From positions 1,116,001 to 1,180,000 of the forward strand of contig NC_086108.1 in NCBI RefSeq assembly GCF_963921235.1: a stretch of DNA of 64,000 nt. The letters run 5' to 3'. Below the pieces are notes generated by a model. It saw only the letters and a program-made list of their open reading frames with translations, had not been told where the DNA came from and did not search any database. Position numbers and translations under genes: made by a program. Shown one piece after another: positions 12,976 through 50,127 of the stretch (position 1 is its first letter; the number at the start of each line of letters is the position of its first letter). The stretch comes from Mobula hypostoma. Its lineage: Eukaryota.

Positions 12976-15900
12976 TTCCTCTGCAACGCACCCCTTCCAG
13001 TTCATCCGGTGACAACACTGTTATGTCCTACCCAGCCCTTTGGACCCTCACCCTCTCCTAGCCTCCTCACCCAGAAAGAATCCCCTACCAAACATTAACT
13101 CAAGATAAACCCTGTTACCCAGAACAAATACCCCACATAGCGATACAATAAAATAGGTCAGTGCTACCTGGCAAGAGATTGTACAGTTTAACTGCTATTT
13201 TAGATGCCCTGAAACATGCCAGTTTTTTAAAAAAGTTCACAAGATCAGACAATACCACATTCAATGCATTCTCCAACTCTTATCCCCTGATTTGCCTCCT
13301 CCTTTCCATTGCAAACTGTGTTTGACACAGATTTAAATCCACCCTGGTTATCACAGAGACATTGAAAATAGAAAAGGGCAAAGGTCATATAAAACTCTCA
13401 CCCTACCCCTGGCTGAAGATCCCGGGCACTACGCGGCTTTGCTGCCATGTACAAAACACACATGTTCTAAAAATATTAATAAAACGAGGGGGAGGAGTGA
13501 GATCTGATCTCTGAATGCCACCAACAACCCCTGTACGGAACTGGAGCCTCATCTGTCATCTTCAACCCAGCTCCATGGCTCTCACAGGTTCACGTCACCA
13601 TATTTCCAAGGCGAAGCCAAGAGCATCTCACTTCACCCATAAAGGGCCCTGGCCATAAGGAGTTAGTGGGGGGGGGGGTTGGTGGGAGCGACTCCACAGA
13701 CTGAGAGAATGAGGCCTACAGGCTCAAGGCTCGCTTGTCCCTTCCCTTGCAGACGCAGGGCCTGTTTCTTCCCTCCCTCTCCCCCAGGTCCTACATCAGC
13801 CTTTTGACCCAACAGGCCTGAGGCCTGGCCCCTTCCCACAGCCTCTCACACTGCTCATTCCCACCACCCCTCTCCCCAGTCCTAATGATACCTCAGGCTC
13901 GGTGCATCCCCACAGGCTCAAGGTTTGTGTTTCCATTCCCCCAGCAGAACCAAGGCCTGTTCACCACTCCTTCATGCCCAAGGCCAAATGATCACCCTCT
14001 CGGGCCTAGTGCTGGGGTTGGAGGGGGCTGGGTATTGAAGCTGAAATGATCGAGGCTTCGCACGTCTGGAAAACGGCAGGCTGTTCCTCTCTGTTGGGTA
14101 TTTTACACCCATGTTACTTTCCTTCCTTCGAGCCAAGGAATCCTTCTCCAGACCCTCATCCTCAATCAGTACGTGAACATCCAGCAGCAACCACGGAAAG
14201 CTTCAGGAAGTCCTGAGGTTATGGAAGTGCAGGCCTCCATTCACAAGCCCAGTGAAGGCCAAACGACCCACAACTTCTGGGGAAGTGGGTTGGAAGGGTC
14301 CCAAAAATCCCCTACCCATATCTGAAGGAGGTGCTTCCTGAGTATTGCTCCCTGAGCAGCCTGGTTATAATCTTGCATCACTCTGCAATTCAGCAGACTG
14401 TCCGTCACAGATAAGGAGAGATTCCACAAATAAAAACTGAGGCACAAGACCGGCAGTTCAGTCCAACAGTTCAAAGTAACAGGTGCCACTCTAAGCAGAA
14501 TTAACAGTGGCGTAATTTCCGCCTCTGCAGACTTGCCAACAACACCTCTCACTGTGATAGTGTGCCCTCAGCCTCCGCCGTCCTCACCTCCTTTACTTGG
14601 AGTGTTTCAAACCAATTTTTGGAAACTTTAGAACTGTCATTTGGTTTCAGGAGTGTCTTGGGGAGGGAGGCAAAGGATTAAGGGCAGAATTCCCGAGTTC
14701 AAGGCCTACCATCGTAGGCCTTCGCAGTGGCATTAGGAATACCTGAATTGTCCCAACCCCCCAGCAGATGTTTAAAGTCACCACCTCCTCCCTAAATTAC
14801 TGTGGAGTCCTTCGGAATAGAAAATTTATCTCTAGTGCTGGTCTATGAACATAATGATCATAACGTACAAAAATGTCCTTTCAAACGTAGCATTGCTATT
14901 CGGAATGATAATTGAGTTCAGGTCATCCATTGGCTGTGGAGAGAAGGGGACAGGGTCACCCTGATGTGGGGTAGGAAGAAGGGGTGAGAACTCTAGGCAT
15001 TTGGGGTAATATCACGGAGTCAGTCCACTTCAAACCTGACAAAAGTGCTGCCACTAGGGAGGGGTGGGGAAAGAGTACTATCCACCTATTGCCAAAAAGG
15101 GTAAACTAAGGGAATGCCTATAAAATCATATGACATAGGAGGAGAATTAGTCTGCATTCAGCCCATCCGGCCCGCTGAGCATGGCTTATTTATTGTCCCT
15201 CTCAACCCCATTCCTGGCATGCTTTCCAAAGTCCATAAAACCCAGAGCTCGGTAAAGCCGACAGGGCTCACCCACGTCCACTTTTGTCTATCTTTCAATC
15301 CTCTTAAGGCACTTCCTTTGAGTTTCTTTGCCCCTCTTCTTCTTGCCCTGCCCTGAGTTATTGGGAAATGAAGGGTCGTTAATTTCAGGACAAGCTTCCC
15401 TTCCCCGCCCCCGCCGCTACCACCCTGCCAAACCCGTCGACTGTGCAGGAGAATGCACACTGTTGGCTGGCTGACATGGACAATGTGCCCCCCTCTGGCC
15501 ACTTAGTTGGTCATCTAGCTCTTTCTCCAAAAGTTTTCTGCACCACTTCAGCACCAAGTGGCAAACCCTGTCTCCGGTGTCTGTTTCTAAAATGCAAAGT
15601 TATTTCTGGCCCATGAGTCACGTCGTGCATCTTTCACCTTGGACATGAGAGGTCAATTACCCCTGAGCTGCTCATCAACTTTGGCAGAGGGAAAAGAACT
15701 TGGGAACTGCATTTCACAGTTGGCCAACTCAACTGAAGCCTCAGTTTTTGGCAGATGCTTCCCAAATGGGAATAGAGGGGGAAACACTTTTCTCCAGAGA
15801 GGGTAGAGCCCTCTCCCACAGGGGTGGGATTGAAGACGACAGCGGGGAGGTATAAATCCTAAGAGATAAGGAAAGAAAGATACAGGCTAAAGAGAATTTT

Positions 15901-29640: not shown

Positions 29641-31000
29641 ATAAAAAGTATTCACCGCCCCCCCCACCCCCCGGAAGTTAATAATACAAAATAATTGATT
29701 GCATAAGAATTCACCCCTATAATATGACACACCAATTTATCACTGGTGTAGCAATTGGTTTTAGAAGTCACAAAATTGGTTAAATGGAGATCTGTTTTTG
29801 GAGACTTGTGTGCAGTCAAGGTGTTTCGATTGATTGTAGTAAAAATATACATATCTGGAAAGTCCAACTGCTGGTGAGTCAGTATTCTGGAAAAAACTAC
29901 ATCATGAAGACAAAAGAACACGCCAAGCAAATCTGTGAAAAGGTTATTGAAAAGCACAAGTCAGGAGATGGATACAAGAAAATTTCCAAGTCACCGAAAA
30001 TCCCTTGGAGAACAGTTAAGTCAATCATCAAGCAATGGAAAGAATATGGCACAGCTGTAAATCTGCCTCGAGCAGGCCGGCCTCAAAAACTGAGTGACCA
30101 TGCAAGTGAGGACTAGTGAGGGAGGACACCGAGAGACCGATGACAACTCTGGAGGGGTTACAAGCTTCAGTGGCTGAGATGGGAGAGACTGCACATACAA
30201 CAGTCTGCATGGGTGCTTCTTTATGGGAGAGTGACAAAGAGAAAGCCACTGTAGAAAAAAAAACTCACATGAAGTTTGCCAGGAGCCATGTAGGAGACTC
30301 TGTGTCAGCTGGAAGATGGTTCTATGGTCTGATGAAACCAAAATTGAACTTTTCGGCCATCAGACTAAACACTAAGTTTGGCATAAACCAAACACCGCGT
30401 ATTATCAAAAACACACCATCCTTGCTGTGAAGCATGGTGGTGGCTGCATCATGCTGTGGGGATGCTTGTGAAGGTAGAGGGTAAAATGAATGCAGCAAAA
30501 TACAGGGAAATTCTGGAGGAAAACCTGATGCAATCTGCAAGAGAACAGTGACTTGGGAGATTTGTTTTCCAGCAAGGCAATGACCCCATGCATAATGCCA
30601 AAGCTAGACAGGAATCTCTTAAATAAAACCATGTCCTGGAGTGGCCAAGTTGGAGTCCAGACCTCAATCCAATTGTGAATTTGTTGTTGGACTTGGAAAA
30701 GGCTGTTGATTCACGATTCCCATGCAGTCTGACAGAGCTTGAGCAGTTTTGTAAAGAAGAATGGGGAAAAATTGTAGTGTCCAGATGTGCAAAGCTGATA
30801 GAGACCTATCCACACAGACTCAAGGCTGTAATTGCTACCAAAGGAGCATCTACTAAATACTGACTTGAAGGGGATGAATACTTATACAATTACTTTGTGC
30901 TTTATATTTGTAATTAATTTAGATCACTCTGTTTTCACTTTAGCACAGAAGAATCTTTTTCTGTTGATCAGTGTCAAAAAAGCCAAATTAAACCTTTTGG
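29641..31000 (+). mobile_element. Degenerate Tc1-family DNA transposon; transposase pseudogene ~29904-30863
   Basis: [74 protein letters not shown]; aaaagtattcac and gatgaatactt terminal motifs. Confidence 0.92.
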
Positions 31001-31026
31001 CTGACTGTGCCCTCGCCTCTGTACTT

Positions 31027-32100
31027 TCCTCCCTCCATCCCTCCCCCGTACCTCCCTCCATCCCTCCCCCCGTCTCTCCCCCCATCCCTTCCCCTGTCTC
31101 TCCCCCCATTCCTCCCTCCGTACCTCCCTCCATCCCTCCCCCGTACCTCCCTCCATCCCTCCCCCGTCTCTCCCTCCATCCCTTCCCCTGTCTCTCCCCC
31201 CATTCCTCCCTCCGTACCTCCCTCCATCCCTCCCCCGTACCTCCCTCCATCCCTCCCCCGTCTCTCCCCCATCCCTCCCCCCCGTACCTCCCTCCATCCC
31301 TTCCCCCATCTCTTCCCCATCCCTCTCCCCGTACCTCCATCCATCCCTCCCCCCGTCTCTTCCCGCATCCCTCCCCTGTCTCTCCCTCCATCCCTCCCCC
31401 CGTCTCTCCCTCCATCCCTTCCCCTGTCTCTCCCCCCATTCCTCCCTCCGTACCTCCCTCCATCCCTCCCCCGTACCTCCCTCCATCCCTCCCCGTCTCT
31501 TCCCCCATCCCTCCCCCGTACCTCCCTCCATCCCTCCCCGTCTCTTCCCCCATCCCTCCCCCGTACCTCCCTCCATCCCTCCCCCGTACCTCCCTCCATC
31601 CCTCCCCCGTCTCTCCCCCCATCCCTCCCCGTACCTCCCTCCATCCCTCCCATCTCTTCCCGCATCCCTCCCCCGTACCTCCCTCCATCCCTCCCCGTCT
31701 CTCCCCCGTACCTTCCCCTGTCTCTCCCCCCATTCCTCCCTCCGTACCTCCCTCCATCCCTCCCCGTCTCTCCCCCCATCCCTCCTCCTGTACCTCCCTC
31801 CATCCCTCCCCGTCTCTCCCCCGTACCTTCCCCTGTCTCTCCCCCCATTCCTCCCTCCGTACCTCCCTCCATCCCTTCCCCTGTCTCTCCCCCCATTCCT
31901 CCCTCCATACCTCCCTCCATCCCTCCCCCGTACCTCCCTCCATCCCTCCCCGTCTCTTCCCCCATCCCTCCCCCCGTACCTCCCTCCATCCCTCCCCCGT
32001 CTCTCCCTCCATCCCTCCCCCGTACCTCCCTCCATCCCTCCCCCGTCTCTTCCCCCATCCCTCCCCCCGTACCTCCCTCCATCCCTCCCCTGTCTCTCCC
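31027..32100. repeat. Pyrimidine-rich minisatellite (cccgtacctccctccatccctcc-type units; G-rich on the minus strand)
   Basis: Direct reading; about 1.07 kb. Confidence 0.97.
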
Positions 32101-32254
32101 TATAAGATGCCAGTGAAGTCTGCAGCTACCATAATAGCCACATTGTGAAGTAACTGTCTGCTCCCCTGTGCAATATCACAGGACAGGACATTAATCATGC
32201 TACACAAACAGAAGGCTCATCAGTCAGGAAGAGAATAACCGTTAATATTAGACT

Positions 32255-33588: not shown

Positions 33589-34120
33589 GGTTCCTTGAGG
33601 TTGTTATAGCCGGGGGTGGTAATGGCAACAAGCTCCCACTACCTATTAAATGGTGTATGTCTCAAATAGCCTCTGACAGCCAAGTCCAGCTCCTGGCCTT
33701 CACGTGAGGCTTAGCTACTAAGCCCAGCAGAACCATTTCTACTGACAGGAGAAGGGGCAAATGTGGGTTACTGGCACCTTAAAACTGGTCACTTCAGGCA
33801 GATGAGGCTCATCAGCTGTGGTTGGCAGCTCAGCTGGAAGGAAAACTCTGACCTCAAACCTCCGCTGCCTTGTGGCTATACCCAACTCATGGGGAAGGTT
33901 TTGGGAGTAAACCCCGAGGGAAAGATCCAGAGCCGGACACCTGCACTCAATGCTGACTGGCAACTCCTGCGATGCTGCTGGTGCCATTTGGCATTGGTCT
34001 GTGCTGTTCCTTTGCTACACGGGCATCCGCTTGCTCTCCATATCGTACTGCCCAAGCTTGCGTGTCTAGACAGCTGGGATGCAACATCCACGGTCAACCT
34101 TGAGTGACGGAAGCCTCAGA
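33589..34120 (+). mobile_element. Non-coding retroelement (SINE or RTE-5'UTR-like) with a structured 5' end
   Basis: Homologous along its length to the minus-strand copy at 50128-51296; no ORF. Confidence 0.7.
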
Positions 34121-37100
34121 TACATGTATACGATTGAAGTGACAATAAGCTTAAACTTGGACTTGCGTATACAGTACTGCTGGTAAACATCTCGGATGGG
34201 TGGAAGAGACCTCAATGGCTAGGCTTGGACTCAATATCCTCTCCAAGTCAGAACCACTGCTGAACGTGAAATATTTTCAGCCAACTACGTCTACATAAAT
34301 CAGACACCTTCTTCCCACTATCCTGGGCCAAAGGGAACAGCATCCAGGAAGACAGCTGTATAGAGCGGGAGTCCGAGTAGAGGGAGTCAGAGTACGAGGG
34401 CATTGACTCAATGGGGCTTCAATGATAATGGATCAAGACGAAGTAAGTTACTTGTGAAAAATAGGATAAGGAAGCTTATCTGCGAGGCCAGTGTTCTGTA
34501 CTGGGCCAGGTTAGGGAACTGGAGATGCAGCTCAATGACCTTCATCTGGTCAGGGACAATGAGGAGGTGATAGATTGGAGCTATAGGCAAGTAGTCACAC
34601 TGGGGCCTTGGGAGACAGATAATTGGGTAACAATCAGGTGAGGGAAGAGCAAGAGTCAGATACTAGAGGCTGTCCCTCTTAACAATAAGTACTCCTGCTT
34701 GAGTACTGTTGGGGGTGGGGGGAAATGACCTACCTGAGGGAAGCAACAGTGGTCGCGCCTCTGGCACAGAGTCTGGCCCTGTGGCTCAGAAGGGTAGGGA
34801 AAGGAAGAGGTTGGCAGCAGTGATAGGGGACTCTATAGTTTGGGGGTCAGACGGGTGATTCTGTGGACACAGGAAAGAAACACAGATGGTAGTTTGCCTC
34901 CCAGCTGCCAGGGTCCGGGATGTTTCTGATCGCGTCCACGATATCCTGAAGTGGGAAGGAGAACAGCCAGAGGTTGTGGTACATATTGATACCAATGACA
35001 AAGGTAGGAAAAGGGAGGAGATCCTGAAAGCAGACTACAGGGAGTTGGGAAAGAAGCTGAGAAGCAGAACCACAAGGGTAAAAATCCCGGGATTACTGCC
35101 TGTGCCACGTGACAGTGAGTATGGGAACAGAGTGAGGTGGAGGATAAATGCGTGGCTGAGGGATTGGAGCAGGGGGCAGGGATTCAAATTTCTGGATCAT
35201 TGGGACCTCTTTTGGGGCAGGCGTGACCTGTACAAAAAGGACGGGTTGCACTCGAGTCCGAGGGGGACCAATATCCTGGCGGGGAGGTTTGCTAAGGCTA
35301 CTGGGGAGAGTTTAAACTAGAATTGCTGGGGGGTGGGAATCGAACTGAAGAGACGGAGGAAGGAATGGTTGGCTCACAAATAGAGAAAGCTTGTAGACAG
35401 TGTGAGAGGAAGGATAGACATGTGATAGAGAAGGGACACGCTCAGACTGATGGTTTGAGATGTGTCTATTTTAATGCAAGGAGTGTCATGAACAAAGTGG
35501 ACGAGCTTAAAGCGTGGATCAGTACTTGGAGCTATGATGTTGTGGCCATTACGCAGACTTGGATGCTCAGGGGCAGGAATGGCTACTTAGAGTGCCAGGC
35601 TTCAGATGTTTCAGAAAGGACAGCCGGGGGGGGATGCAAAAGAGGTGGGGGTGTGGCACTGTTGATCAGAGATAGAGTCACAGCTGCAAAAAAGGAGGAA
35701 GTCATGGAGGGGTTGTCTACTGAGTCTCTACGGGTGGAAGTTAGAAACAGGAAGGGGTCAATAACCACCCAATAGTAACAGGGACATCAAGGAGCAGATA
35801 GGGAGACAGATTCTGGAACGGTGCAATAATAACGGGGTTGTCGTGATGGGAGATTTTAGTTATCCCAGTACCGATTGGTATCTTTCTGGAGTGAGGAGTT
35901 TAGATGGGGTGGAGTTTGTTAGGTGTGTTCAGGAAGGTTTCCTGACTAAAAGAGAAGAGGCTGTACTTGATCTGGTATTGGGAAATGAACCTGGTCAGGT
36001 GTCAGATTTCACAGTGGGAGAGCATTTTGGAGATAGTGATCACAGTTCTATCTACTTTAGCATAGCATTGGAGACGGATAGGAACAGACAAATTAGGAAA
36101 ACGCTTAATTGGAGTAAGGGAAAATTTGAAGCTATCAGGCAGGAACTTGGAAGCATAAATTGGGAAGAAATGTTCTCAGGGAACTGTATAGCAGAAATGT
36201 GGCAAATGTTCAGGGGATATTTGCGTGGAGTTCTGCATAGGTATGTTCCAATGAGACAGGGAAAGGATGGTAGGATATAGGAACCATGATGTACAAAGGC
36301 TGTTGAAAATCTAGTCAAGAAGAAAAGCTTACGAAAGGTTCAAAAAACTAGATACTGATAGATAGCTAGAAAATTATAAGGCTAGCAGGAAAGAGCTTAA
36401 GAATGAAACTAGGAGAGCCAGAAAGGGGCCATGAGAAGGCCTTGGCAAGCAGGATTAAGGAAAATCCCAAGGTATTCTACCAGTATGTGAAGAGCAAGAG
36501 GATAAGACGTGAGAGAATAGGACTAATCAAGTGTGACAGTGGAAAAGTGTGTATGGAACTAGAATAGGTAGCGGAGGTACTTAATGAATACTTTGCTTCA
36601 ATATTCACCATGGAAAAGGACCATGGTGATTGTAGGGATGAGTTAGAGCAGACTGAAAAGCTTGAGCATATAGTCATTAAGAAAGAGGATGTGCTGGAGC
36701 TTTTGGAAAGCATCAAGTTGGATAAACTACTGGGACCGGATGGGATGTACCCCAGGCTACTGTGGGAGGCAAGGGAGGAGATTGCTGAGCCTCTGGTGAT
36801 GATCTTTGCATCATCAATGGGGACGGGAGAGGTTCTGGAGGATTGGAGGGTTGAGGGTGTTGTTCCCTTATTCAAGAAAGGGAGTAGAGATAGCCCAGGA
36901 AATTATAGCCCAGTGAGTCTTACCTCAATGGTTGGTATGTTGATGGAGAAGATCCTGAGAGGCAGAATTTATGAACGTTTGGAGAGGCATAATCTGATTA
37001 GGGATAGTCAGCATAGCTTTGTCAAAGGCAGGTTGTACCTTACCAGCCTGATTGAATTTTTTGAGGATGTGACTAAACACATTGATGAAGGTAGAGCAGT

Positions 37101-37232
37101 AGATGTAGTGTATATGGATTTCAGCAAGGCATTTGATAAGGTACCCCATGCAAGGCTTATTGAGAAAGTAAGGAGGCATGGGATCCAAGGTGACCTTGCA
37201 GTATTGGCTTGCCCACAAAAGGCAAAGGCAAA

Positions 37233-37790
37233 GATATGAGAGGATCATGGGACAGGAGGCCTAGGGAGAAAGAAAAGTGGCGGGGGCGGGGAGCCCAGAG
37301 GATGGGCAAGGGATATAGTCAGAGGGACAGAGGGAGAAAAAGGAGAGAGAGAAAAAGAATGCGTGTATATAAATAAATAAATAATGGATGGGGTACGAGG
37401 GGGAGGTGGGGCATTAGCGGAAGTTTGAGAAGTCAATGTTCATGCCATCAGCTTGGAGGCTACTCAGACGGAATATAAGGTGTCATGCCACCAGGTTTCT
37501 CCCTAGGCCTTCTGTCCCATGATCCTCTCGTATCCCTTTTGCCTATCACCTGTCCAGCTCTTGGCTCCATCCCTCCCTCTCCTGTCTTCTCCTATCATTT
37601 TGGATCTCCCCCTCCCCTTCCCACTTTCAAATCTCTTACTAGCTCTTCCTTCAGTTAGTCCTGACGAAGGGTCTTGGCCCGAAACATCGACTGTACCTCT
37701 TCCTAGAGATGCTGCCTGGCCTGCTGCATTCACCAGCAACTTTTATGTGTGTTGCTTGAAATTCCAGCATCTGCAGATTTCCTCGTGTTT
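37233..37790. mobile_element. Penelope-like terminal fragment with internally inverted structure
   Basis: gatatgagaggatcatgggacaggaggcctagggagaaa at 37233 is inverted at ~37496-37535; ends tgcttgaaattccagcatctgcagatttcctcgtgtt, as in the 17342 insert. Confidence 0.8.
37656..37693 (+). ncRNA. Minimal type I hammerhead ribozyme motif (Penelope-associated)
   Basis: TAGTC-CTGACGA-A-GGG(TCTTGG)CCC-GAAAC-ATC-GACTG; stem I TAGTC/GACTG intact, GTC>ATC change. Confidence 0.55.
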
Positions 37791-39533
37791 GCTGGCAGAA
37801 TATAGTATTAATGGTAAGACTCTTGGCAGTGTGGAGGATCAGAGGGATCTTGGGGTCCAAGTCCATCGGACACTCAAAGCTGCTGTGCAGGTTGACTCTG
37901 TGGTTGAGAAGGCATACGGTGTATTGGCTTTCATCAACCGTGGGATTGAGTTCAAGAGCTGAGAGGTAATGTTGCAGCTATATAAGACGCTGGTCAGACC
38001 CCACTTGGAGTACTGTGCTCAGTTCTGGTCACCTCACTACAGGAAGGATGTGGAAACCATAGAAAGGGTGCAGAGGAGATTTACAAGGATGTTGCCTGGA
38101 TTGGGGAGCATGCCTTATGAGAATAGGTTGAGTGAACTCAGCCTTTTCTCGGAGTGAAAGAGGATGAGAGGTGACCTGATAGAGGTGTATAAGATGATGA
38201 GAGGCATTGATTGTGTGGATAGCCAGAGGTTTCTCCCCAGGGCTGAAATGGCTGACACGAGAGGTGACAGTTTTAAGGTGCTTGGAAGTAGGCACAGAGG
38301 AGATGTCAGGGGTAAGATTTTTACGCAGAGAGTGGTGAGTGTGTAGAATGGGCTGCCAGTGATAATGGTGGAGGCGGATACAATAGGGTCTTTTAACAGA
38401 CTTTTGGATAGGTATATGGAGCTTAAAAAATAGAGGTCTATGGGTAACCCTAGGTAATTTCTAAAGCGCATGTTCTGGACAGCATTTTGGGCCAAAGGGC
38501 CTGTATTATGCTGTAGGTTTTCTATTTTTCTAACCAGAATGCAGAGGACAACAAACTGTGCAGATGCAAATATAAATAAATAGCAATAAGTAATGAGAAC
38601 ATGAGATAATGAGATAAAGAGTCCTTAAAGTCAGATCATTGGTTGTGGGAACATCTCAATGGATGGGCAGGTGAATGTGGTTATCCCCATTTGTCACTAG
38701 CCTGATGGTTGAGAGGTAGTAACTATTCTTAAAATGTGGTGGTGCTTGTCCTGAGGCTCTTGTTCCTTCTACTGATGGCAGCAGCGAGAAAAGAACATGG
38801 TCTGGGTGATGGGGATCTCTGATGATGGATGCTGCTTTCCTGTGACAACATTTCATGTAGAGGTGCTCAGTGGCTGGGGATGCTGGGCCGAAACCACTAC
38901 CTTTTGTTGGCTTTTCCATTCAAAAGTATTGGGTCTTCCCATTCCAGGATGTGATGCAGTCAGTCGATACAGTCTCCACTACACATCTTTAGAAGTTTGT
39001 CAAAGTTTTTGATGTCACACCAAATCTCCGTGGACTCCTAAGAAAGAAGAGACTATACTTGAGAGAAGGAGGAATTTCTTCAGTTAAGAGTGTTGAATCG
39101 GTGGAATTTGTTGCCTTGGATGACATTGGAAGCCAAGTCATTGGTCTCTTAGACAGTCATATGCAAATACAGACAATGTATGATAGGTCACTAAAGAGAA
39201 TCACAAGATTCTACAGATATTCTGTGGAGAGCATTCTACCGAGCTGCGTAACTGTCTAGTATGGCGGGGTGGGGGGGGGGCGGCTACTACACAGGATTGG
39301 AATAAGCTGCAGAAAGCTGTAAACTCAGTCAGCTCTGTCATGGGTACTAGCCTCCCCAGCATCCAGGACATCTTCAAGGAGTAATGCCTCAAATAAGGTG
39401 GCGTCCATTATTAAGGACCCCCATCACCCAGGACATGCCCTCTTCTCATTGCTACCATCAGGGAGGAGGTACAGAAGCCTGATGATTCTTCCCCTTTGCT
39501 GATTTCTGAATAGACACTGAATCCATGAACACT

Positions 39534-40513
39534 CATCATCATCATCAGCTGCCGTGCCCAGTTTGAGCTTTGACTGCCATGGCCCACACACTCCTGTTTC
39601 GGGTCAAGTGTACCAATTCATTGGTGTTCATTTCCAGTTCTCTGGCTGCTGTCTCCATCATCATTTATCTTTTGTCTTCCTCTTGCTTTCTTCCCTTCAA
39701 TCTTCCCCATAATTTCCGTGCATTCCAACTCTTCTTTCCTAATCACATGTCCAATGACCTTACATTGCCTTTTCATGATCTCATACATTATCTCTCTTTT
39801 TGTGTTTGCTCTGTTCATGACATCCTCGTTAGATATTCATTTCGTCCATGATATTCTTTGCATCCTCCTCAAAAACCACATCTCTGCTGCTTCAATTCGT
39901 TTCATGTTACTAGATATTGTCCAACATTCTAAGCCATATAACATAACTGGATAAACGTAATATTTCAGTACTCTGAGGTGGGTTGTCATGCCTAGTTTAG
40001 TATTGTCAGTATACTCTTCATTCTCGTAAAGATGTCTTTTGCCATCCCCATTCTTCTTTTGATGTCCAAGTCACACCTGCCATCTGATGTCACCCTGCTT
40101 CCTAAGTAGCAAAAGTTCTGTACTTGTTTTATGTCTTCCCCGTTTATTCTCAGCCTGCAGATAGGATTCTCCTTCTTTTTGGATATCACCATACATTCTG
40201 TCTTTTTGCAATTGATAGACTCATTTTTGCACTATCTTCAACAACTATATCAATTAAATTTTGTAGTTTTTCCTCCGTACTTGCAATTAACGCAGTGTCA
40301 TCTGCATATCTGAAATTATTGATGTTTTCACTGCCAACTTTGATTCCCAAGATGTATCTTATTTTTTGTAATATTGTTTCACTGTACACATTAAATAAAT
40401 CAGGGGAGAAAACACACCCTTGTCTAACGCCGCTCTTGATTTTCATAAACTGACTCACTACTCCATCTATTCTTACAGCGGCAGTTCGTTCCCAGTACAG
40501 ATTTCTATGAAAT
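39534..40513 (-). mobile_element. 5'-truncated RTE-clade LINE with (GAT)n tail and 12-bp TSD, nested in a Rex1-like element
   Basis: GVRQGCVFSPDLFNVYSE, NNFRYADD, FCYLGS, GKKARGR; TSD TCCATGAACACT at 39522-39533 and 40514-40525. Confidence 0.92.
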
Positions 40514-41149
40514 TCCATGAACACTACCTCACTACTTTAGATTTCTGCTTTTACACTACTTATTTAACTGTTTAATATATATGCATACTTACTGTAATTC
40601 ACAGATATTTTTCTATTATGATGTACTGCTGTCGCAAAGACAACAAAGTGATTCTGATTGTGGATAGGGATATGGTGAGTGTGTGCAATGCACTGCTGGG
40701 GTAGGAGCAGAAATTGACTGGTTAGAATCAGAATCAGGTTTATTATCACTGGCATATGTTGTGAAAGGTCTTGGTTGGTAAAGGTAAAGGAATGGAGGGC
40801 GGTTGAAAGAGTCTGGGGAGAACAAGTTCAGAAAAAATTCACGATGATTAAATGGCAGAAAATACTCGATGGGTTGGATGGCTTAATTCTGCTGTTGTGT
40901 CTTATAGCTTTACAGTACCTGTTCACATGACAGTAAACAAGTTTAATTTGTTTTTTATTTAGAGGCAGGGCTTGGACTAGACCCTCCCAGACCTTCGAAC
41001 CGCGCTGCTCAGCAATCGCTGCTTTAACCCTTGCCCAGGGATTCCCATCCGTTGTTATAGCATGGCCCAACACCATTAAGCAGGTTGGCAACCCCTGCCC
41101 CAGCTTAATCACAGAACCATTTGAAATGAACAACTAACCGGCTAACTGT

Positions 41150-41300
41150 TACGTCTTTCAGAGGAAACTGGAGCACCCGGAGCGAACTCACACATTCCAC
41201 ATGGAGAATATACAAACACGTTACAGACGACGCCGGGATTGAACACCAAACTCCGATGCCCTGAGCTGCAATAGAGGCGCGCTGTCATTGTTACGCTACC
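41150..41300 (-). mobile_element. V-SINE-like element just 3' of the exon donor
   Basis: gaggaaactggagcacccggag...acaaac..gttacagac core. Confidence 0.65.
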
Positions 41301-41333
41301 GTCGGTGCCCTGACGTATGTTCAAAGCACTCAC

Positions 41334-42154
41334 CTTCAAGCTGAACTCGTCCTGGCTGCTGAGGGGTGAGGTGACGCTGGGGTTCTGCTGCCCTCCGCGT
41401 TCGTCCGTGTACCTCCGCCGGTGAGACGCCTGCTCTCGGGCGGCCCTGCCACCGAGCATGCCCGTGGTGGGCGGCCAGCCGTTGAAGAGGCCAGCATGGG
41501 TCTTCATATGCCTCTTCAGCTTGCTGGACTGGCTGCAGGCATGCTCGCAGAAGGGGCAGCGGTAGGGCTTCTCGCCCGTGTGGCTTCGCCGGTGCACCAC
41601 CAGGTTGCTGGGAAACTTGAAGGTCTTGCCGCAGAACTCACAGTCCTTGCTCCGGCCGTGTGGCGAGTGCTGCCGGCCGGTCCCCGAGGACGAGTGGCCG
41701 GCTGGCACGGCCGGCAAGCGGTGCTGGTGGCTCCGGCGGGACGGCCCAGCTCCCCCCACTAGGGTCCGCAGCCGGCGGGAGAACTCCACCGGCGGCCGCC
41801 GTCCCTGGGCTGGCGAGGGTGCCGTCTCCTCTGAGCCACTGTCACTCTGGTCGGGCAGCCGGTGGAGGGGCGGAGCAAAGAGCAGGGAGCCCGTCACCGC
41901 CGCTGGCGAGCGGACCCGGAAGGGGGTCTCTCGGGCGCGGGGCCCCTCGGAAGGGCTGCCCTCCTGGGACCGGGGGGACAGGGAGCCGGCGGGGTTGTCA
42001 GTGCTGGATGGTGGTGGCAAGGGGGACTCGGCGTGGTCCAGCTCGAGGAAGATGTGGAGGCCATGGTTGTACTGGGCGTGTTGAAGCAAGAGCCAGGCGC
42101 TGGGGAAGGGTTCCTTGCAGGAGGTGCAGATGTAGCAGACGGGCTCCACCTCAT
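41334..42154 (-). CDS. Internal coding exon of a BCL11-family C2H2 zinc-finger transcription factor (BCL11A/B-like, possibly ZNF296 orthologue): ZF1 plus the ZF2-ZF3 pair
   Basis: Translation (D)EVEPVCYICTSCKEPFPSAWLLLQHAQYNHGLHIFLE matches BCL11 ZF1; also EFSRRLRTL and [49 protein letters not shown]. Acceptor ctttttctgcccacag|AT at 42155/42154 (phase 1); donor AAG|GTGAGT at 41334/41333 (phase 0). GC/CpG-rich. Confidence 0.92.
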
Positions 42155-42449
42155 CTGTGGGCAGAAAAAGAAACAAGCGTAGGTTAGAAAACCATTGCCT
42201 ATCAAACACACAGCCTGGAGCCCACCATCACCAAAGACTTGACATTGGGAACAGTTTGCACTGACTATATGGGCCGAATGCTCTGTTTCTATGCCTGTAT
42301 GATGAAGACCATAAGACATGGGAGCAGAATTAGGCCACTTCCTATCCACGTCCACTCCAAGAGCTGACTTTCAATATTCAGGAGGTTTCAATGAGATCCC
42401 CCTCATCTCTCTAAACACCAGTGAGTCGAGCCCCAGAGCCTTCAAAAGC

Positions 42450-43115
42450 CAGCAAGCCATGCTAGCATCTCCTCTTAAAGAGGTCCAGTATGTCAACAGA
42501 CATTGCAACAAACTTTTACACTTTTGCCAAGAGTCAGACCACACTTGGAGTATTGTGGGCACTTCTGGGCCCCTTATCTAAGAAAAGGTGTGGGTGTGCA
42601 GGCCTCGGACAGGGTCCAGAGGAGGTTCGTGAGAATGATCCTGGAAATGGAAGGGTTAATGTACGAGGAGTGTTTGTTGGCTTTAGGCCTGTATTCACTG
42701 GAGTTTAGAAGCATGATGAAGTGTGGGGCTGGGGGGGGGGGGGGGAAGATTCTCATTAAAACCGGCAAATATTGAAAGGCCTAGATAGAGTGGACATGGA
42801 GAGGATTTTTGCTATAGCAGGGGAGTCTAGGACCAGTGGGTACAGCCTCAGACTACAAGGTTGTCCCATTAGAGCAGAGAAGGAGGAATTTCTTTAAAAG
42901 AGGGAGGTGAATCTGTGGAATTCATTGCCACAGATAGCTGGCAACCAAGTTAGGGGGCAAATTTAAAGTGGGGGTTGATAGGCGCTTGATTAGTCATGGC
43001 ATGGAAGGGTACAGGGAGAAGGCAGGAGATTGAAAATAAATCAGTCATGATGGAATAGGAGCGCAGACTTGATGGGCCCACTGGCCTAATTCTGCTCCAA
43101 CACTTTATGGTCTTA
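42450..43115 (+). mobile_element. Degenerate CR1 3' fragment
   Basis: RPHLEYC...LGLYSLEFR motif and 3'UTR. Confidence 0.8.
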
Positions 43116-45628
43116 AATGCAGTGTAGAAAGTATCTTCTGCCCAGCCACAAATCCTTCTCAATGTTATTTGTTCAGCCTCCATACATGCAGATCTAAGTT
43201 ACATAGAAATATAGAAAACCTACAGCATAATACAGGCCCTTCGGCCCACAAAGCTGTGTCAAACATGTCCCTACCTTAGAACTACCTGGGCTTTACCCAT
43301 AGCCCTCTATTTTTCTAAGCTCTATGTAGCCATCCAGGAGTCTCTTCAAAGACCCTATCGTTTCCACCTCCACCACCACCGCTGGTAGCCCATTTCACGC
43401 ACTCACCACTCTCTGCGTAAAAAAACTTATCCCTGACATCTCCTCTGTACCTACTTCCAAGCACCTTAAAACTGTGCCCTCTCATGCTAGCCATTTCAGC
43501 CCTGGGGAAAAGCCTCTGACTACCCACATGATCAATGCCTCTCATTACCTTGTACACCTCTATTAAGTCACCTCTCATCCTCCTGTTTTCGTAAGGCATG
43601 CTCCCCAATCCAGGCAACATCCTTGTAAATCTCCTCTGCACCCTTTCTATGGTTTCCACGTCCTTCCTATAGTGAGGCGACCAGAATTGAGCAGAGTACT
43701 CCAAGTGGGGTCTGACCATGGTCCCATATAGCTGCAACATTACCTCTCGGCTCTTAAGCTCAATCCCACGATTGATGAAGGCCAATGCACCGCACGCCTT
43801 CTTAACCACAGAGTCAACCTGCGTAGCAGCTTGGAGTGTCCTATGGACATGGACCCCAAGATCCCTCTGATCCTCCACGCTGCCAGGAGTCTTACCATTA
43901 ATACTATATTCTGCCATCATATTTGACCTACCAAAATGAACCACCTCACACTTACCTGGGTTGAACTCCATCTGCCACTTCTCAGCCCAGTTTCGCATCC
44001 TATCAATGTCCCACTGTAACCTCTGACAGCCGTCCACACTATCCACAATACCCCCAAACTTGGTGTCATCAGCATATTTACTAACCCATCCCTCCACTTC
44101 CTCATCCAGGTCATTTATAAAAATCAAAAAGAGTAGGGGTCCCAGAACAGATCCCTGAGGCACACCACTGGTCACCGACCTCCATGCAGAATATGACCCG
44201 TCTACAACCACTCTGACCCTGTGGGCAAGCCAGTTCTGGATCCACAAAGCAATGTCCCCTTGGATCCCATGTCTCCTTACTTTCTCAATAAGTCTTGCAT
44301 GGGGTACCTTATCAAATGCCTTGCTGAAATCCATCTACACTACATCTACTGCGCTTCCTTCATCAATGTGTTTAGTCACAACCTCAAAAAATTCAGTCAG
44401 GCTTGTAAGGCATGACCTTCCTTTGACAAACCCTTGCTGACTATTCCTAATCATATTATGCCTCTCCAAATGTTCATAAATCCTGCCTCTCAGAATCTCC
44501 TCCATCAACTTACCAACCACTGAAGTAAGACTCACTGGTCTGTAATTTCCTGGGCTATCTCTACTCCCTTTCTTGAATAAGGGAACAACATCTGCAACCC
44601 TCCAATCCTCCAGAACCTCTCCCATCCCCATTGATGATGCAAAGATCATTGCTAGAGGCTCAGCAATCTCGTCCCTCACCTCCCACAGTAGCCTGGGGTC
44701 CATCCTGTCCGGTCCCGGTGATTTATCCAACTTGATGCTTTCCAAAAGCTCCAGCACATCCTCTTCCTTAATATCTATATGCTCAACCTTTTCAGTTCAC
44801 CGCAAGTCATCCCTACAATCGCCAAGATCCTTTTCCGTAGTGAATACTGAAACAAAGTACTCATTAAGTACCTCCGCTATTTCCTCCTGTTCCATACACA
44901 CTTTTCCACTGTCACATTTGATTGGTCCTATTCTCTCACGTCTTATCCTCTTGCTCTTCACATACTTGTAGAATGCCTTGGTGTTTCCCCTAATCCTGAC
45001 ACCAAGGCCTTCTCATGGCCCCTTCTGGCTCTCCTAATTTCATTCTTAAGCTCCTTCCTGCTAGCCTTATAATTTTCTAGATTCATATCATTACCTAGTT
45101 TTTTGAACCTTTCATAAGCTCTTCTCTTCTTCTCGACTAGATTTACAACAGCCTTTGTACACCACAGATCTTGTACCTACCATCCTTTCCCTGTCTCATT
45201 GGAACGTACCTACTCAGAACCCCACGCAAATATCCCCTGAACATTTGCCACATTTCTTGGGTATGTTTCCCTGGGAACATCTGTTCCCAACTGATGCTTT
45301 TAAGTTCCTGCCTGATAGCCTCATAGTTCCCCTTACTCCAATTAAACATTTCCTTAACTTGTCTGTTCCTATCCCTTTCCAATACTATGGTAAAGCAGAT
45401 AGAATTGTAATCACTATCTCCAAAATGCTCTCCCACTGAGAGACCCGACACCTGACCATGCTCATTTCCCAATACCAGATCAACTACAGCCTCTCTTCTT
45501 ATAGGCTACATATTGTGTCAAGAAACCTTCCTGAACACATCTAACAAACTCCACCCCATCTAAACCCCTCCCTCTAGGGAGATGCCAATCGATATTTTTC
45601 CTGTTTCATTCCTGTAGAATTAGATAGC

Positions 45629-46564
45629 ATGCCTGCAGGGTTGGTGCTTTGTTCAGGGTGTCAGATGTGGGAATCCTGGGAGACTTCCAGCCTCCCTGAT
45701 GGCCACATCTGTGCCAGGTGCACCGAGATGCGGCTCCTCAGAGACCGTGTTAGGGATCTGGAGCTGCAGCTTGATGACCTACTGCTTATCAGGGAAAGTG
45801 AAGAGGTGATAGACAGGAGCTACAGGGAGATAGTCATCCCTAGGCTACAGGGGTCAGAAAACTGGGTGACTGTCAGGAGAGGGAAGGGAAATGCCCAGAC
45901 AGTGGAGAGCACACCTGTGGCTGTCCCCCTCAGCAACAAATATCTTGTTCTGGATGCTGTTGAGGGGGATGACCTGACAGGGGACTCCCACGGTGACCGG
46001 ATCTCTGGCACTGAGCCTGGCGCTGTTGTGCAGGAGAGGAGGAGGGAGAAGAGAAATGCGGTAGTCATAGGGGATTCCATAGTCAGGGGAATGGACAGGA
46101 GATTCTGTGAGTCTGATAGAGATACCTGCATGGTGTGTTGCCTCCCAGGTGCCAGGGTACGGGATGTCTCGGATCGGGTCCTGAATATTCTGAAGGGGGA
46201 GGGTGAGCAGCCAATTGTCTTGGTACATGTTGGTACCAATGACATAGATAGGACAAAGGAGGAGGTCCTGAAGAGAGATTTCTGGGAGTTAGGAAGGAAG
46301 CTGAGAAGCAGGACCTCCAGGGTAGTAATCTCAGGATTGCTACCTGTGCCACGTGCTAGCGAGGGCAAGAATAGTAGGATCAGGCAGATGAATGCGTGGC
46401 TGAGAGACTGGTGCAGGGGACAGGGCTTCAGATTCTTAGATAATTGGGATCTCTTCTGGGGGAAGTATGACCTGTTCAAAAAGGACAGGTTACACCTGAA
46501 TCCGAAGGGGACCAATATCCTGGCGGGAAAGTTTAATAGAGCTGTTAGGGAGGGTTTAAACTAA
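45629..46564 (+). CDS. CR1 ORF1 protein (311 aa): CxxC...CxxC zinc finger, leucine zipper/coiled coil, SGNH esterase domain
   Basis: CSGC...CARC, LRDRVRDLELQLDDL, and GDSIVRG, HVGTND, DRLH blocks; uninterrupted ATG to TAA. Confidence 0.9.
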   Translation: MPAGLVLCSGCQMWESWETSSLPDGHICARCTEMRLLRDRVRDLELQLDDLLLIRESEEVIDRSYREIVIPRLQGSENWVTVRRGKGNAQTVESTPVAVPLSNKYLVLDAVEGDDLTGDSHGDRISGTEPGAVVQERRREKRNAVVIGDSIVRGMDRRFCESDRDTCMVCCLPGARVRDVSDRVLNILKGEGEQPIVLVHVGTNDIDRTKEEVLKRDFWELGRKLRSRTSRVVISGLLPVPRASEGKNSRIRQMNAWLRDWCRGQGFRFLDNWDLFWGKYDLFKKDRLHLNPKGTNILAGKFNRAVREGLN

Positions 46565-46665
46565 TTTGGCAGGGGGATGGGAACCGGAATGATAGAGCAG
46601 AGGAAGGGGAAAACAGAAATAAATCTAAGATAGTGAGCAGTAAAGATGTCAGGAAAGACAGGTAG

Positions 46666-49551
46666 GTGATGGGGCAAATTTGTAGCCATTGGGATGAGTT
46701 GCAGTGCAATAAAGTTGCAGTGGAATCAAAGCGAAAAGTACCAAATACTGGTTTTAAGGTGTTATACTTAAATGCACGCAGCATAAGGAATAAGGTGGAT
46801 GATCTTGTCGTACAGCTACAGATTGGCAGGTATGATACTGTGGCCATCACTGAGACGTGGCTAAAGGATGCATGTCTCTGGGAGCTGAACATCCAAGGAT
46901 ACACGGTGTATCGGAAGGATAGGAAGGTAGGCAGAGGGGGAGGCGTGGCTTTATTGGTAAGAAATGATATTAAATCATTAGAAAGAGGTGATATAGGATC
47001 GGAAGGTGCAGAATCTTTATGGGTTGAACTGCGAAATCGCAGGGGTAAAAGGACCCTGATGGCAGTTATTTATAGGCCTCCAAACAGCTGCAGGAATGTG
47101 GACTACAAATTACAACAGGAAATAGAAAAGGCTTGTCAGAAGGGCAGTGTTATGATAATTGTGGAGGATTTTAACATGCGAGTGGATTGGGAAAATCAGG
47201 TCGGCACTGGATCTCAAGAGAGAGAATTTGTAGAATGTCTGCGAGTTGACTTTTTAGAACAGCTTGTTGTTGAGTCCACTGGGGGATCGGCTGTACTGGA
47301 TTGGGTATTGTGTAATGAACCGGAGGTGATTAGAGAGATTGAGGTGAAGGAACCCTTAGGAGGCAGTGATCATAACATGATTGAGTTTACTGTGAAATTT
47401 GAAAAAGAGAAGGCGAAATCTGATGTGTCGGTATTTCAGTGGAGTAAAGGAAATTACAGTGGCATGAGAGAGGAACTGGCCAAAGTTGACTGGAAAGGGA
47501 CACTGGCAGGAAAGACGGCAGAGCAGCAGTGGCTGGAGTTTATGTGAGAAGTGAGGAAGGTGCAAGACAGGTATATTCCAAAAAAGAAGAAATTTTCGAA
47601 TGGGAAAAGGATGCAACCATGGTTGACAAGAGAAGTCAAACCCAAAGTTAAAGCAAAGGAGAGGGCATACAAGGAAGCAAAAATTAGTGGGAAGACAGAG
47701 GATTGGGAAGTCTTTAAAACCTTACAAAAGGAAACCAAGAAGGTCATTAAGAGGGAAAAGATTAACTATGAAAGGAAGCTGGCAAATAATATCAAAGAGG
47801 ATACTAAAAGCTTTTTCAAGTATATAAAGAGTAAAAGACAGGTGAGAGTAGATATAGGACCGATAGAAAATGATGCTGGAGAAATTGTAATGGGAGATAA
47901 GGAGATGGTGGAGGAACTGAACGAGTATTTTGCATCAGTCTTCACTGAGGAAGACATCAGCAGCATACCGGACACTCAAGGGTGGCAGGGAAGAGAAGTG
48001 TGCGCAGTCACAATTACGACACAGAAAGTACTCAGGAAGCTGAATAGTCTAAGGGTAGATAAATCTCCTGGACCAGATGGAATGCACCCTCGTGTTCTGA
48101 AGGAAGTAGCTGTGGAGATTGCGGCGGCATTAGCGACGATCTTTCAAACGTCGATAGATTCTGGCATGGTTCCGGAGGACTGGAAGATTGCAAATGTCAC
48201 TCCGCTATTTAAGAAGGGGGCAAGGAAGCAAAAAGGAAATTATAGACCTGTTAGCTTGACATTGGTGGTTGGGAAGTTGTTGGAGTCGATTGTCAAGGAT
48301 GAGGTTACAGAGTACCTAGAGGCATATGACAAGATAGACAGAACTCAGCATGGATTCCTTAAAGGAAAATCCTGCCCGACAAACCTATTACAATTTTTTG
48401 AGGAAATTACCAGTAGGCTAGACAAGGGAGATGCAGTGGATGTTGTATATTTGGATTTTCAGAAGGCCTTTGACAAGGTGCCACACATGAGGCTACTTAA
48501 CAAGATAAGAGCTCATGAAATTACGGGAAAGTTACATACGTGGATAGAGCGTTGGCGATTGGCAGGAAACAGAGAGTGGGAATAAAGGGATCCTATTCTG
48601 GTTGGCTGCCGGTTACCAGTGGTGTTCCACAGGGGTCCATGTTGGGGCCGATCCTTTTTACATTGTACATCAATGATTTGGATTATGGAACAGATGGCTT
48701 TGTGGCTAAGTTTGCTGACGATACGAAGATAGGTGGAGGGGCCGGTAGTGCTGAGGAAACGGGGAGTCTGCAGAGAGACTTGGATAGATTGGAAGAATGG
48801 GCAAAGAAGTGGCAAATGAAATACAATGTTGGAAAGTGTATGGTTATGCACTTTGGCAGAAGAAAGAAACGGGCAGACTATTATTTAAATGGGGAAAGAA
48901 TTCAAAGTTCTGAGATGCAACGGGACTTGGGAGTCCTCGTACAGGATACCCTTAAGGTTAACCTCCAGGTTGAGTCGGTAGTGAAGAAGGTGAATGCAAT
49001 GTTGGCATTCATTTCTAGAGGAATAGAATATAGGAGCAGGGATGTGATGTTGAGGCTCTATAAGGCGCTGGTGAGACCTCACTTGGAGTACTGTGGGCAG
49101 TTTTGGTCTCCTTATTTAAGAAAGGATGTGCTGACGTTGGAGAGGGTACAGAGAAGATTCACTAGAATGATTCTGGGAATGAGAGGGTTAACATATGAGG
49201 AACGTTTGTCCGCTCTTGGACTGTATTCCTTGGAGTTTAGAAGAGTGAGGGGAGACCTCATAGAAATATTTCGAATGTCGAAAGGCATGGACAGAGTGGA
49301 TGTGGCAAAGTTGTTTCCCATGATGGGGGAGTCTAGTACGAGAGGGCATGACTTAAGGATTGAAGGGCGCCCATTCAGAACAGAAATGCGAAGAAATTTT
49401 TTTTAGTCAGAGGGTGGTGAATCTATGGAATTTGTTGCCACGGACAGCAGTGGAGGCCAAGTCATTGGGTGTATTTAAGGCAGAGATTGATAGGTATCTG
49501 AGTAGCCAGGGCATCAAAGGCTATGGTGAGAAGGTGGGGGAGTGGGACTAA
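46666..49551 (+). pseudogene. CR1 ORF2 (AP endonuclease plus reverse transcriptase), disrupted
   Basis: Consecutive ORF pieces 46666-47547, 47551-48585 and 48540-49406 with ETW, GGGV, SDH, YRPVSL, DFQKAFD, GVPQGS and FADD motifs. Confidence 0.92.
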
Positions 49552-50127
49552 ATGGGAGAATGGATCTGCTCATGATAAAATGGCGGAGCAGACCCGATGG
49601 GCCGAATGGCCGACTTCTGCTCCTTTGTCTTATGGTCTTATGATATTTGAGAAATTAAACTCTCCCACCACAGCAACCCTGTTATTATTACTCCTTTCCA
49701 GAATCTGTCTCCCTATCTGTTCCTCGATGTCCCTGTTACTATTGGGTGGTCTATAAAAAACACCCAGTAGATTTATTGCCACCTTCCTATTCCTAACTTC
49801 CAGCCACAGAGACTCCGTAGACAACCCCTCCATGACTTCCTGCTTTTTTGCAGCCGTGACACTCTCTCTGATTAACAGTGCCATGCCCCCACCTCTTTTG
49901 CCTCCCTCCCTGTCCTTTCTGAAATATCTAAAGCCTGGCACTTGAAGTTGCTGATTTATGCCACACCTTGTGTCACCACTATAGTGTGGGCACCTCTGGA
50001 CAACGTCCACTATTATGTCCCACCCCTTGATCACAAACCAAACAAGCTCAAGTTAATTTTTTTCCCCACTTATGATTCAGGATAACTCCTGCTAAACTTC
50101 CACGTTAATTACCTTTTTAAATCAGAA

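Follow-up and report, generated by a model that had tools for sequence, protein, structure and literature searches.

The translation of the second open reading frame (ORF2) of long interspersed elements (LINEs) has been settled for only a few elements, and in all of these it takes place by reinitiation. Here we describe the junction between ORF1 and ORF2 of a LINE found in a 64,000-nucleotide (nt) stretch of the Mobula hypostoma genome (NC_086108.1, positions 1,116,001 to 1,180,000 of the forward strand), called the window below and used for all positions. Judged from its sequence, the interval 35293-35480 covers the junction of ORF1 and ORF2 in a decayed CR1 LINE of the esterase type (copy A); a second element, copy B, is found at 45598-49641. 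Both copies are dead, and the window displays the fossil of a signal used by their active ancestors. We consider it probable that a programmed -1 ribosomal frameshift yields an ORF1-ORF2 fusion in the active ancestors of the vertebrate esterase-type CR1 elements. The CR1 label is based on domains and on the likeness, by eye, of the junctions to consensuses labelled CR1, and the only tree is that of the esterase.

Viral -1 frameshift signals are bipartite, with a spacer of 5-9 nt (PMC7618472), and U_UUA_AAC, G_GGA_AAC, and A_AAA_AAC are among the most shift-prone heptamers on mammalian ribosomes (PMC5009743). The CR1 junction resembles the sites of coronaviruses such as infectious bronchitis virus (IBV) and of retroviral gag-pol. 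The upstream frame encodes a structural or ribonucleoprotein (RNP) component, the polymerase is found in the -1 frame, and the in-phase heptamer is the U_UUA_AAC of the coronaviruses. Unlike the viral sites and those of long terminal repeat (LTR) elements, it belongs to a non-LTR element, is followed immediately by the stop codon, and has neither a conserved stem-loop or pseudoknot-like fold nor an Rfam match. [quoted passage not shown] The likeness would lie in a motif of low complexity and without structure, set off by a spacer of 10 nt. However, CR1 has a G-rich motif and a canonical heptamer, and 5 of 18 published consensuses show the exact spacing; this is a resemblance, not membership.

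SART1 and L1 resemble CR1 in having a bicistronic RNA and an ORF2 that depends on translation of ORF1, but SART1 uses a UAAUG stop-start and L1 has a 63-nt spacer, and both make a separate ORF2 protein (ORF2p), while CR1 is predicted to make a fusion. HeT-A of Drosophila is a non-LTR element for which frameshifting has been proposed, within gag (PMC5009743); by its description it is set apart from CR1, being of another clade and without an esterase ORF1. The architecture of CR1 subgroup 7 with ORF1 type IV (Metcalfe and Casane, 2014) and of ZfL2-1 is similar to that found here: ORF1 with a zinc-finger-like N-terminus, a coiled coil, and an SGNH esterase, and ORF2 with an APE endonuclease and a reverse transcriptase (RT). 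The ORF1s of cyprinid ZfL2-1-like elements, unlike those of copies A and B, do not end in Leu-Asn (LN).

No slippery site or frameshift at a CR1 junction was described in the literature searched, with Haas (1997, 2001), Kajikawa (1997), Kapitonov and Jurka (2003), and the Repbase/Dfam notes outside its scope. The word "frameshift" is absent (0 occurrences) from the main texts of PMC4120745, PMC3905857, PMC13343379, and PMC8665684, "CR1" is met 0 times in the first 300,000 of the 449,034 characters of PMC5009743, and the junction sequences are absent from the supplements of PMC4316615 (part), PMC4120745, and PMC7140322. The novelty of a CR1 frameshift is provisional; the mechanism is a known one, here in a large element family and with an unusual layout in which the stop adjoins the heptamer and no fold is found.

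The ORF1/ORF2 junctions of copies A and B

The two copies have the following features:

34501..35320, + strand: copy A ORF1, an SGNH/GDSL esterase ending ...GESLN-stop; truncated at the 5' end and disrupted by a frameshift near 34710 and a stop at 34856-34858
35293..35295, + strand: TAA, the final stop of the -1 frame ahead of the junction, then 15 nt of open -1 frame up to the heptamer
35311..35317, + strand: the slippery T_TTA_AAC heptamer, which shares the phase of ORF1 and supplies its final codons, Leu-Asn
35318..35320, + strand: ORF1 stop TAG, directly adjoining the heptamer
35328..35337, + strand: G6-T-G3 run after a 10-nt spacer, a candidate unstructured stimulator
35311..35466, + strand: N-terminal linker of copy A ORF2 in the -1 frame, 52 codons, stop-free, with a single ATG at 35365 (codon 19)
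35467..37220, + strand: copy A ORF2, from the endonuclease start (YFNARS at 35467) into part of the RT; several frameshifts, cut off near 37220
45598..49641, + strand: copy B, a near full-length CR1 with a 7-nt direct repeat on each side (45591-45597, 49642-49648)
45629..46564, + strand: copy B ORF1, open, 311 amino acids; Cys-rich N-terminus, long helix, linker, and esterase, ending ...REGLN-stop
46552..46576, + strand: copy B junction, with tandem in-phase heptamers G_GGT_TTA and T_TTA_AAC, stop TAA, and a G5 run at a 10-nt spacer
46555..46764, + strand: linker of copy B ORF2, 70 codons, with one stop at 46663 and the first ATG at 46669 (codon 39)

The initial annotation had placed the copy A heptamer, the adjoining TAG, and the upstream TAA correctly. 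ORF1 ends AGT TTA AAC TAG, which gives the X_XXY_YYZ phase, and no other in-phase X_XXY_YYZ is found among the 153 copy A ORF1 codons examined. The -1 frame is, as had been claimed, without stops into the endonuclease; it is open over 35296-35775 and reads FKLELLGGGNRTEE... into YFNARS at 35467, and the next in-frame ATG (35488) is downstream of the YFNARS start. The esterase was identified by Pfam (PF13472, E 6.5e-10), and among named ORF1 homologues the nearest belong to rays and sharks. In copy A ORF2 PF00078 (RT) was detected, and the endonuclease start was recognised by its similarity to copy B. Copy B was inserted into an A-family CR1 that is older and lies on the minus strand. Its ORF1 gives PF13472 above the cut-off, and its ORF2 PF14529, PF03372, and PF00078. 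The TTTAAAC of copy B is found at 46555-46561 and followed by TAA; where it has the linker stop at 46663, a related published consensus, HypSab_CR1-6b, has by eye a sense codon. The 5' end of copy B (45598-45628) is pyrimidine-rich and ends in AG just ahead of the ORF1 ATG; GGTAAG motifs are found at the 5' ends of several published shark CR1s, and an intron in the 5' untranslated region is possible.

The initial annotation regarded the two copies as independent subfamilies that retain the heptamer, the adjacent stop, and the G-tract on unlike linkers. Retention is confirmed: both have TTTAAAC, then TAG or TAA, and a run of at least five Gs beginning at nt 11 after the heptamer. The linkers do differ in length (52 versus 70 codons), and their first ATGs, at codons 19 and 39, are not equivalent. 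Independence was overstated, as the copies are 72% identical in DNA over ORF1 and use the same codon at 65 of 96 identical residues (68%). The pair alone proves little because, given this relatedness, descent could keep T|TTA|AAC. No further ORF1 end lies in the window. The pattern TTTAAACTRRN{6,8}GGGGG, devised after the sites had been seen, has two matches in the window, both of them the junctions, and 0 in 100 shuffles; TTTAAAC as such occurs at eight sites on both strands, two being the junctions. A look-alike at 14745-14776 on the minus strand, with TTTAAAC followed by a G6 run, was rejected as a third junction, since it is without ORF1 or ORF2 homology, and was taken as chance. Elsewhere in the window, both strands of 30832-32175 carry long ORFs in multiple frames; the C/G skew is strong there, and the interval appears tandem-repeat-like.

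In the proposed mechanism the majority of the ribosomes would terminate and release the ORF1 protein (ORF1p), while in a minority the tRNA-Leu and tRNA-Asn on UUA-AAC would slip back onto UUU-AAA. The slipped ribosomes would read ...E-S-L-N-L-E-L-L-G-G-G... and make an ORF1p-linker-endonuclease-RT fusion at a fixed low ratio, in the fashion of Gag-Pol. More speculatively, the required pause might come from slow termination at the adjoining stop, from the G-run 10 nt downstream, or from both, and the G-run could act without any stem, for example as a protein-binding site.

Conservation of the heptamer and the open linker

Distant loci were collected using esterase patterns that exclude the junction. 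Metagenome contigs gave at least 39 loci, of which five reach a vertebrate-type junction, while seven bird-like loci end ahead of it; the label bird-like is our assumption, drawn from similarity to ORF1s named from birds. The in-phase TTTAAAC is exact in four of the five bird-like loci that reach the junction (L003, L006, L010, and L024), and in the fifth, the decayed L004, it has one mismatch. Shark-bird synonymous sites are far more diverged: in the comparisons of shark with L006, no more than 18 of 38 and 11 of 40 of the identical residues have the codon in common. Among genome contigs 12 loci were found, one of them LINE-like (L042) and none with a vertebrate junction. CR1 was absent from the viral contigs scanned, and plasmids and phages gave no match. 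Some of the distant esterase LINEs (L005:1827, L011:1589, L012:3487, L016:2405, and L021:2053, also L026) have ORF1 and ORF2 in one frame with a single stop between them. L016 reads CAA TAG GAT and has no Met ahead of the endonuclease motif, making it a candidate for readthrough of the stop codon, by which the same fusion could be reached in another way. L042:2627, a LINE-like contig in a bacterial metagenome-assembled genome, has ORF2 in the -1 frame overlapping the ORF1 stop and no in-phase heptamer within 90 nt.

Published consensuses were taken from the supplement of PMC13343379 (preprint, bioRxiv 10.64898/2026.01.13.699120), where the first 400 letters of each could be searched, and were classed by eye. 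The vertebrate ones gave 23 matches to TTTAAAC plus a stop, 18 of them at an ORF1 end, under 12 species codes. These codes we take to stand for sharks, rays, a chimaera, bowfin, a teleost, coelacanth, a frog, a lizard, and crocodilians. Using upstream ORF1 words as anchors instead, eight junctions were visible and all eight have the heptamer. From the CR1 codon use in the window, T|TTA|AAC would arise by chance at about 0.01 per lineage. Synonymous variants that keep Leu-Asn and destroy the heptamer had been named as what would speak against a recoding signal. As controls, 18 terms that cover a subset of the synonymous combinations, with a different Leu codon, with AAT, or with another base ahead of TTA, gave 53 listed places, some counted twice, and 0 at an ORF1 end.

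Of 275 ORF1 proteins, an alignment at the catalytic His was obtained for 207; in 191 the C-terminus follows 18-40 residues beyond it, and 130 of these end in LN and 10 in Gly-Asn (GN). Clustering at 80% gave 115 clusters: 66 LN, 10 GN, and 39 with other ends, in part by decay. In 0 of the 66 LN clusters is LN preceded by E, Q, K, M, or W, the five residues that have no codon ending in T. GN is preceded by Q in 9 of 10 clusters, which at the protein level would permit G_GGA_AAC, and one protein ends S-K-N, which would likewise permit A_AAA_AAC. In a quick tree from which the tail was left out, the GN and KN ends and one LN end group in one clade (98% support). Of 18 complete close relatives retrieved by another search, 16 end in GN, the residue before it being Q, K, or A. 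E-G-L-N ends, as in copy B with its tandem heptamers (46552-46561), are frequent in shark ORF1s. Among the distant-clade ends (P0214, P0230, P0239, P0256, P0263, and P0265), one clade has R, T, or S followed by K-N about 10 residues before the stop, which would allow A_AAA_AAC, and another ends F-F-R or F-F-H, which at the protein level would permit a U-run. Some CR1 ORF1s are filed as a Pseudomonas hydrolase or within host gene models (P0022, P0028, P0075, P0122, P0125, and P0131); the host models are RPS24, TMEM204, RAD23B, PDLIM5, and VSIG10L2, and contamination or mis-annotation, possibly exonisation, may explain them.

The heptamer might be a by-product of codon choice and ancestry if the ORF1 protein required a C-terminal Leu-Asn, ORF2 then being translated from its first AUG. 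Leu310 indeed closes the last esterase helix of the structural model (301-310, predicted local distance difference test (pLDDT) score 87), and protein constraint may contribute. The distance from the His to the end is 22 residues in 55 of the 66 LN clusters, the closeness of A and B could let descent alone retain the codons, and TTTAAACT is also present as ordinary F-K-L codons near the end of ORF2. However, Asn311 is modelled with low confidence (56), LN is found at 21-35 residues past the His and is replaced by GN or KN, and the absence of synonymous variants at ORF1 ends in the 53 control places, against 18 heptamer matches, is not accounted for. Neither are the open linker and the missing AUG of family A. 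This explanation is thus largely refuted and most unlikely to hold; the heptamer is conserved beyond the need of the protein.

Linkers were counted in five DNA junctions (A, B, L003, L006, and L010; the decayed L004 and L024 were excluded). Between the heptamer and the endonuclease motif the -1 frame has one stop in 308 codons, while the other two frames have 22, of which five are the ORF1 stops, and 33. Four of the five linkers are free of stops, the exception being copy B. They are 37-88 codons long, or 37-108 when gene models are counted; these were chosen for open frames and are uninformative on stop counts. The peptides of distant families cannot be aligned. A linker held open is to be expected if it is translated from the slip site. 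F-K-L stands at the junction in six stork gene models and three further proteins, and this fixes T TTA AAY. The first in-frame Met is found at linker codon 5, 19, 23, 39, or 83, or not at all, so no dedicated start codon is kept. The initial annotation had proposed that selection acts on a recoding signal and not on the linker peptide or a start codon; the signal and the start codon bear this out, but the linker is constrained in so far as its -1 frame is kept open.

Contigs of three sequencing runs from relatives were compared with copy A over 34850-35750; a fourth run gave 0 reads. Among the variants listed, 35311-35320 has neither a majority change nor an indel in any of the three. The A of ATG 35365 reads G in 87%, 84%, and 82% of the depth (sums over contigs, not copy numbers), and this ATG is private to copy A. 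When the listed majority changes are applied, the linker of family A has no ATG ahead of YFNARS, and the family is therefore unable to produce a complete endonuclease by starting at an AUG; in APE-type endonucleases the motif's Asn is presumably essential. A sequencing error or a private indel as the source of the -1 offset was rejected, as no junction indel is listed in the three runs and the offset recurs in other loci.

The main rival is reinitiation independent of AUG, as part of a termination-reinitiation of the SART1/L1 type, where the ribosome resumes in the -1 frame, be it at an AUG close by or at a non-AUG codon, and TTTAAAC and the G-run are reinitiation signals. Reinitiation is the mechanism reported for both bicistronic LINEs studied (PMC2881922, PMC5972666), and initiation on L1 is described as AUG-independent (PMC5009743). 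A restart of this kind close to the stop would keep the linker open as well, and L003, with an in-frame ATG 2 nt past the ORF1 stop, fits it. Yet none of the six junctions examined has a stop-start overlap, L003 is the only one with an AUG nearby, and the AUG is otherwise found anywhere from codon 5 to 83 or is missing. Nor does reinitiation predict an in-phase X_XXY_YYZ with T before LN and G before GN. We regard it as improbable.

The downstream sequence and the limits of the frameshift reading

A stem or pseudoknot downstream of the heptamer, considered in the initial annotation, was not borne out by folding or consensus folding. The six junctions fold no better than shuffled sequences (z -1.8 to +1.8), the five-way consensus fold has 0 pairs (pseudoknots not being modelled directly), long-range duplexes are not shared and the best ones are at unrelated places, and Rfam gave no match in 34000-50000. 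Lacking a significant or shared fold, the junction is not classed as a classical structure-stimulated site. The six junctions examined all have in common a stretch of five or more Gs that begins at nt 11, after a 10-nt spacer; 16 such runs were counted in about 10,200 nt of element body. G4Hunter scores are raised, at 1.08-2.4 and at least 1.2 in five of the six, yet the quadruplexes predicted are two-tier only and found in three of the six.

The G-run is conserved as nucleotides (G-GGG-G, 6 of 6), which is also what one would expect if the junction were an RNA element with another role, such as RNP packaging, ORF1p binding, a 5' exon splicing to ORF2, or polymerase slippage, and only incidentally looked slippery. 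The pyrimidine stretch and AG before the ORF1 ATG of copy B further suggest that splicing may occur. Against this, no supported joint was found among the rows listed for one putative RNA run, which may be DNA, and the stop varies between TAG, TAA, and TGA, so that its AG does not amount to a conserved acceptor. No long homopolymer is present on which a polymerase might slip, and such a role leaves both the phase-lock to the ORF1 stop and the swaps of the heptamer unexplained. We find it very unlikely.

Programmed frameshifting itself has to be weighed against a number of observations, the missing fold, Leu310, and the ATG of L003 among them. Heptamers without a structure usually shift poorly. 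In the 18 published consensuses the G5 is exactly at nt 11 in five, displaced in nine (one base closer in four, elsewhere in five), and missing in four; these consensuses carry visible deletions, yet the count opposes a strict spacing of the G-run. The GN and KN heptamers are predicted from protein sequences, and related proteins do not count as independent. Residues E, Q, K, M, and W are scarce at positions -6 and -7 as well (4 and 5 of 66), the unclustered protein P0034 ends E-L-N, and the LN-only test is not significant when clustering is done at 50% (p 0.09). The search profile included the LN columns and favours LN matches. Some Met is found ahead of the endonuclease motif in four of the five DNA linkers and in all the stork models.

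With these points taken into account, the signal anatomy is nevertheless conserved: an in-phase U_UUA_AAC, an adjoining stop, ORF2 in the -1 frame, an open linker, and no conserved AUG. The first reading of the locus is in this sense supported, and extends to the CR1 elements of jawed vertebrates. A wider scheme can be drawn, in which the fusion is made via interchangeable U_UUA_AAC, G_GGA_AAC, and A_AAA_AAC in jawed vertebrates and a distant clade, stimulated without a fold by the stop and a protein-read G-run at a 10-nt spacer, and in sister lineages by readthrough. This scheme is tentative, and we doubt that it holds as a whole.

Implications for CR1 elements

CR1 is the dominant retroelement in most non-mammalian vertebrates, and chicken has more than 410,000 CR1 fragments (PMC11835228). 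If CR1 uses the frameshift, its RT would be made fused to the esterase ORF1p, a simple route to cis-preference and to a set ORF1:ORF2 ratio. The calling of intact copies would change, since the slip site, in place of an ATG, would be the point from which to measure ORF2, and the splicing of ORF1 into ...FKL... in gene models would be explained. The junction is a testable cassette of 60 nt, possibly with a fold-free stimulator. Should the wider scheme also be true, which at present seems doubtful, no natural frameshift signal in the genomes of vertebrates would be more abundant, and the stimulator would be of a new type.

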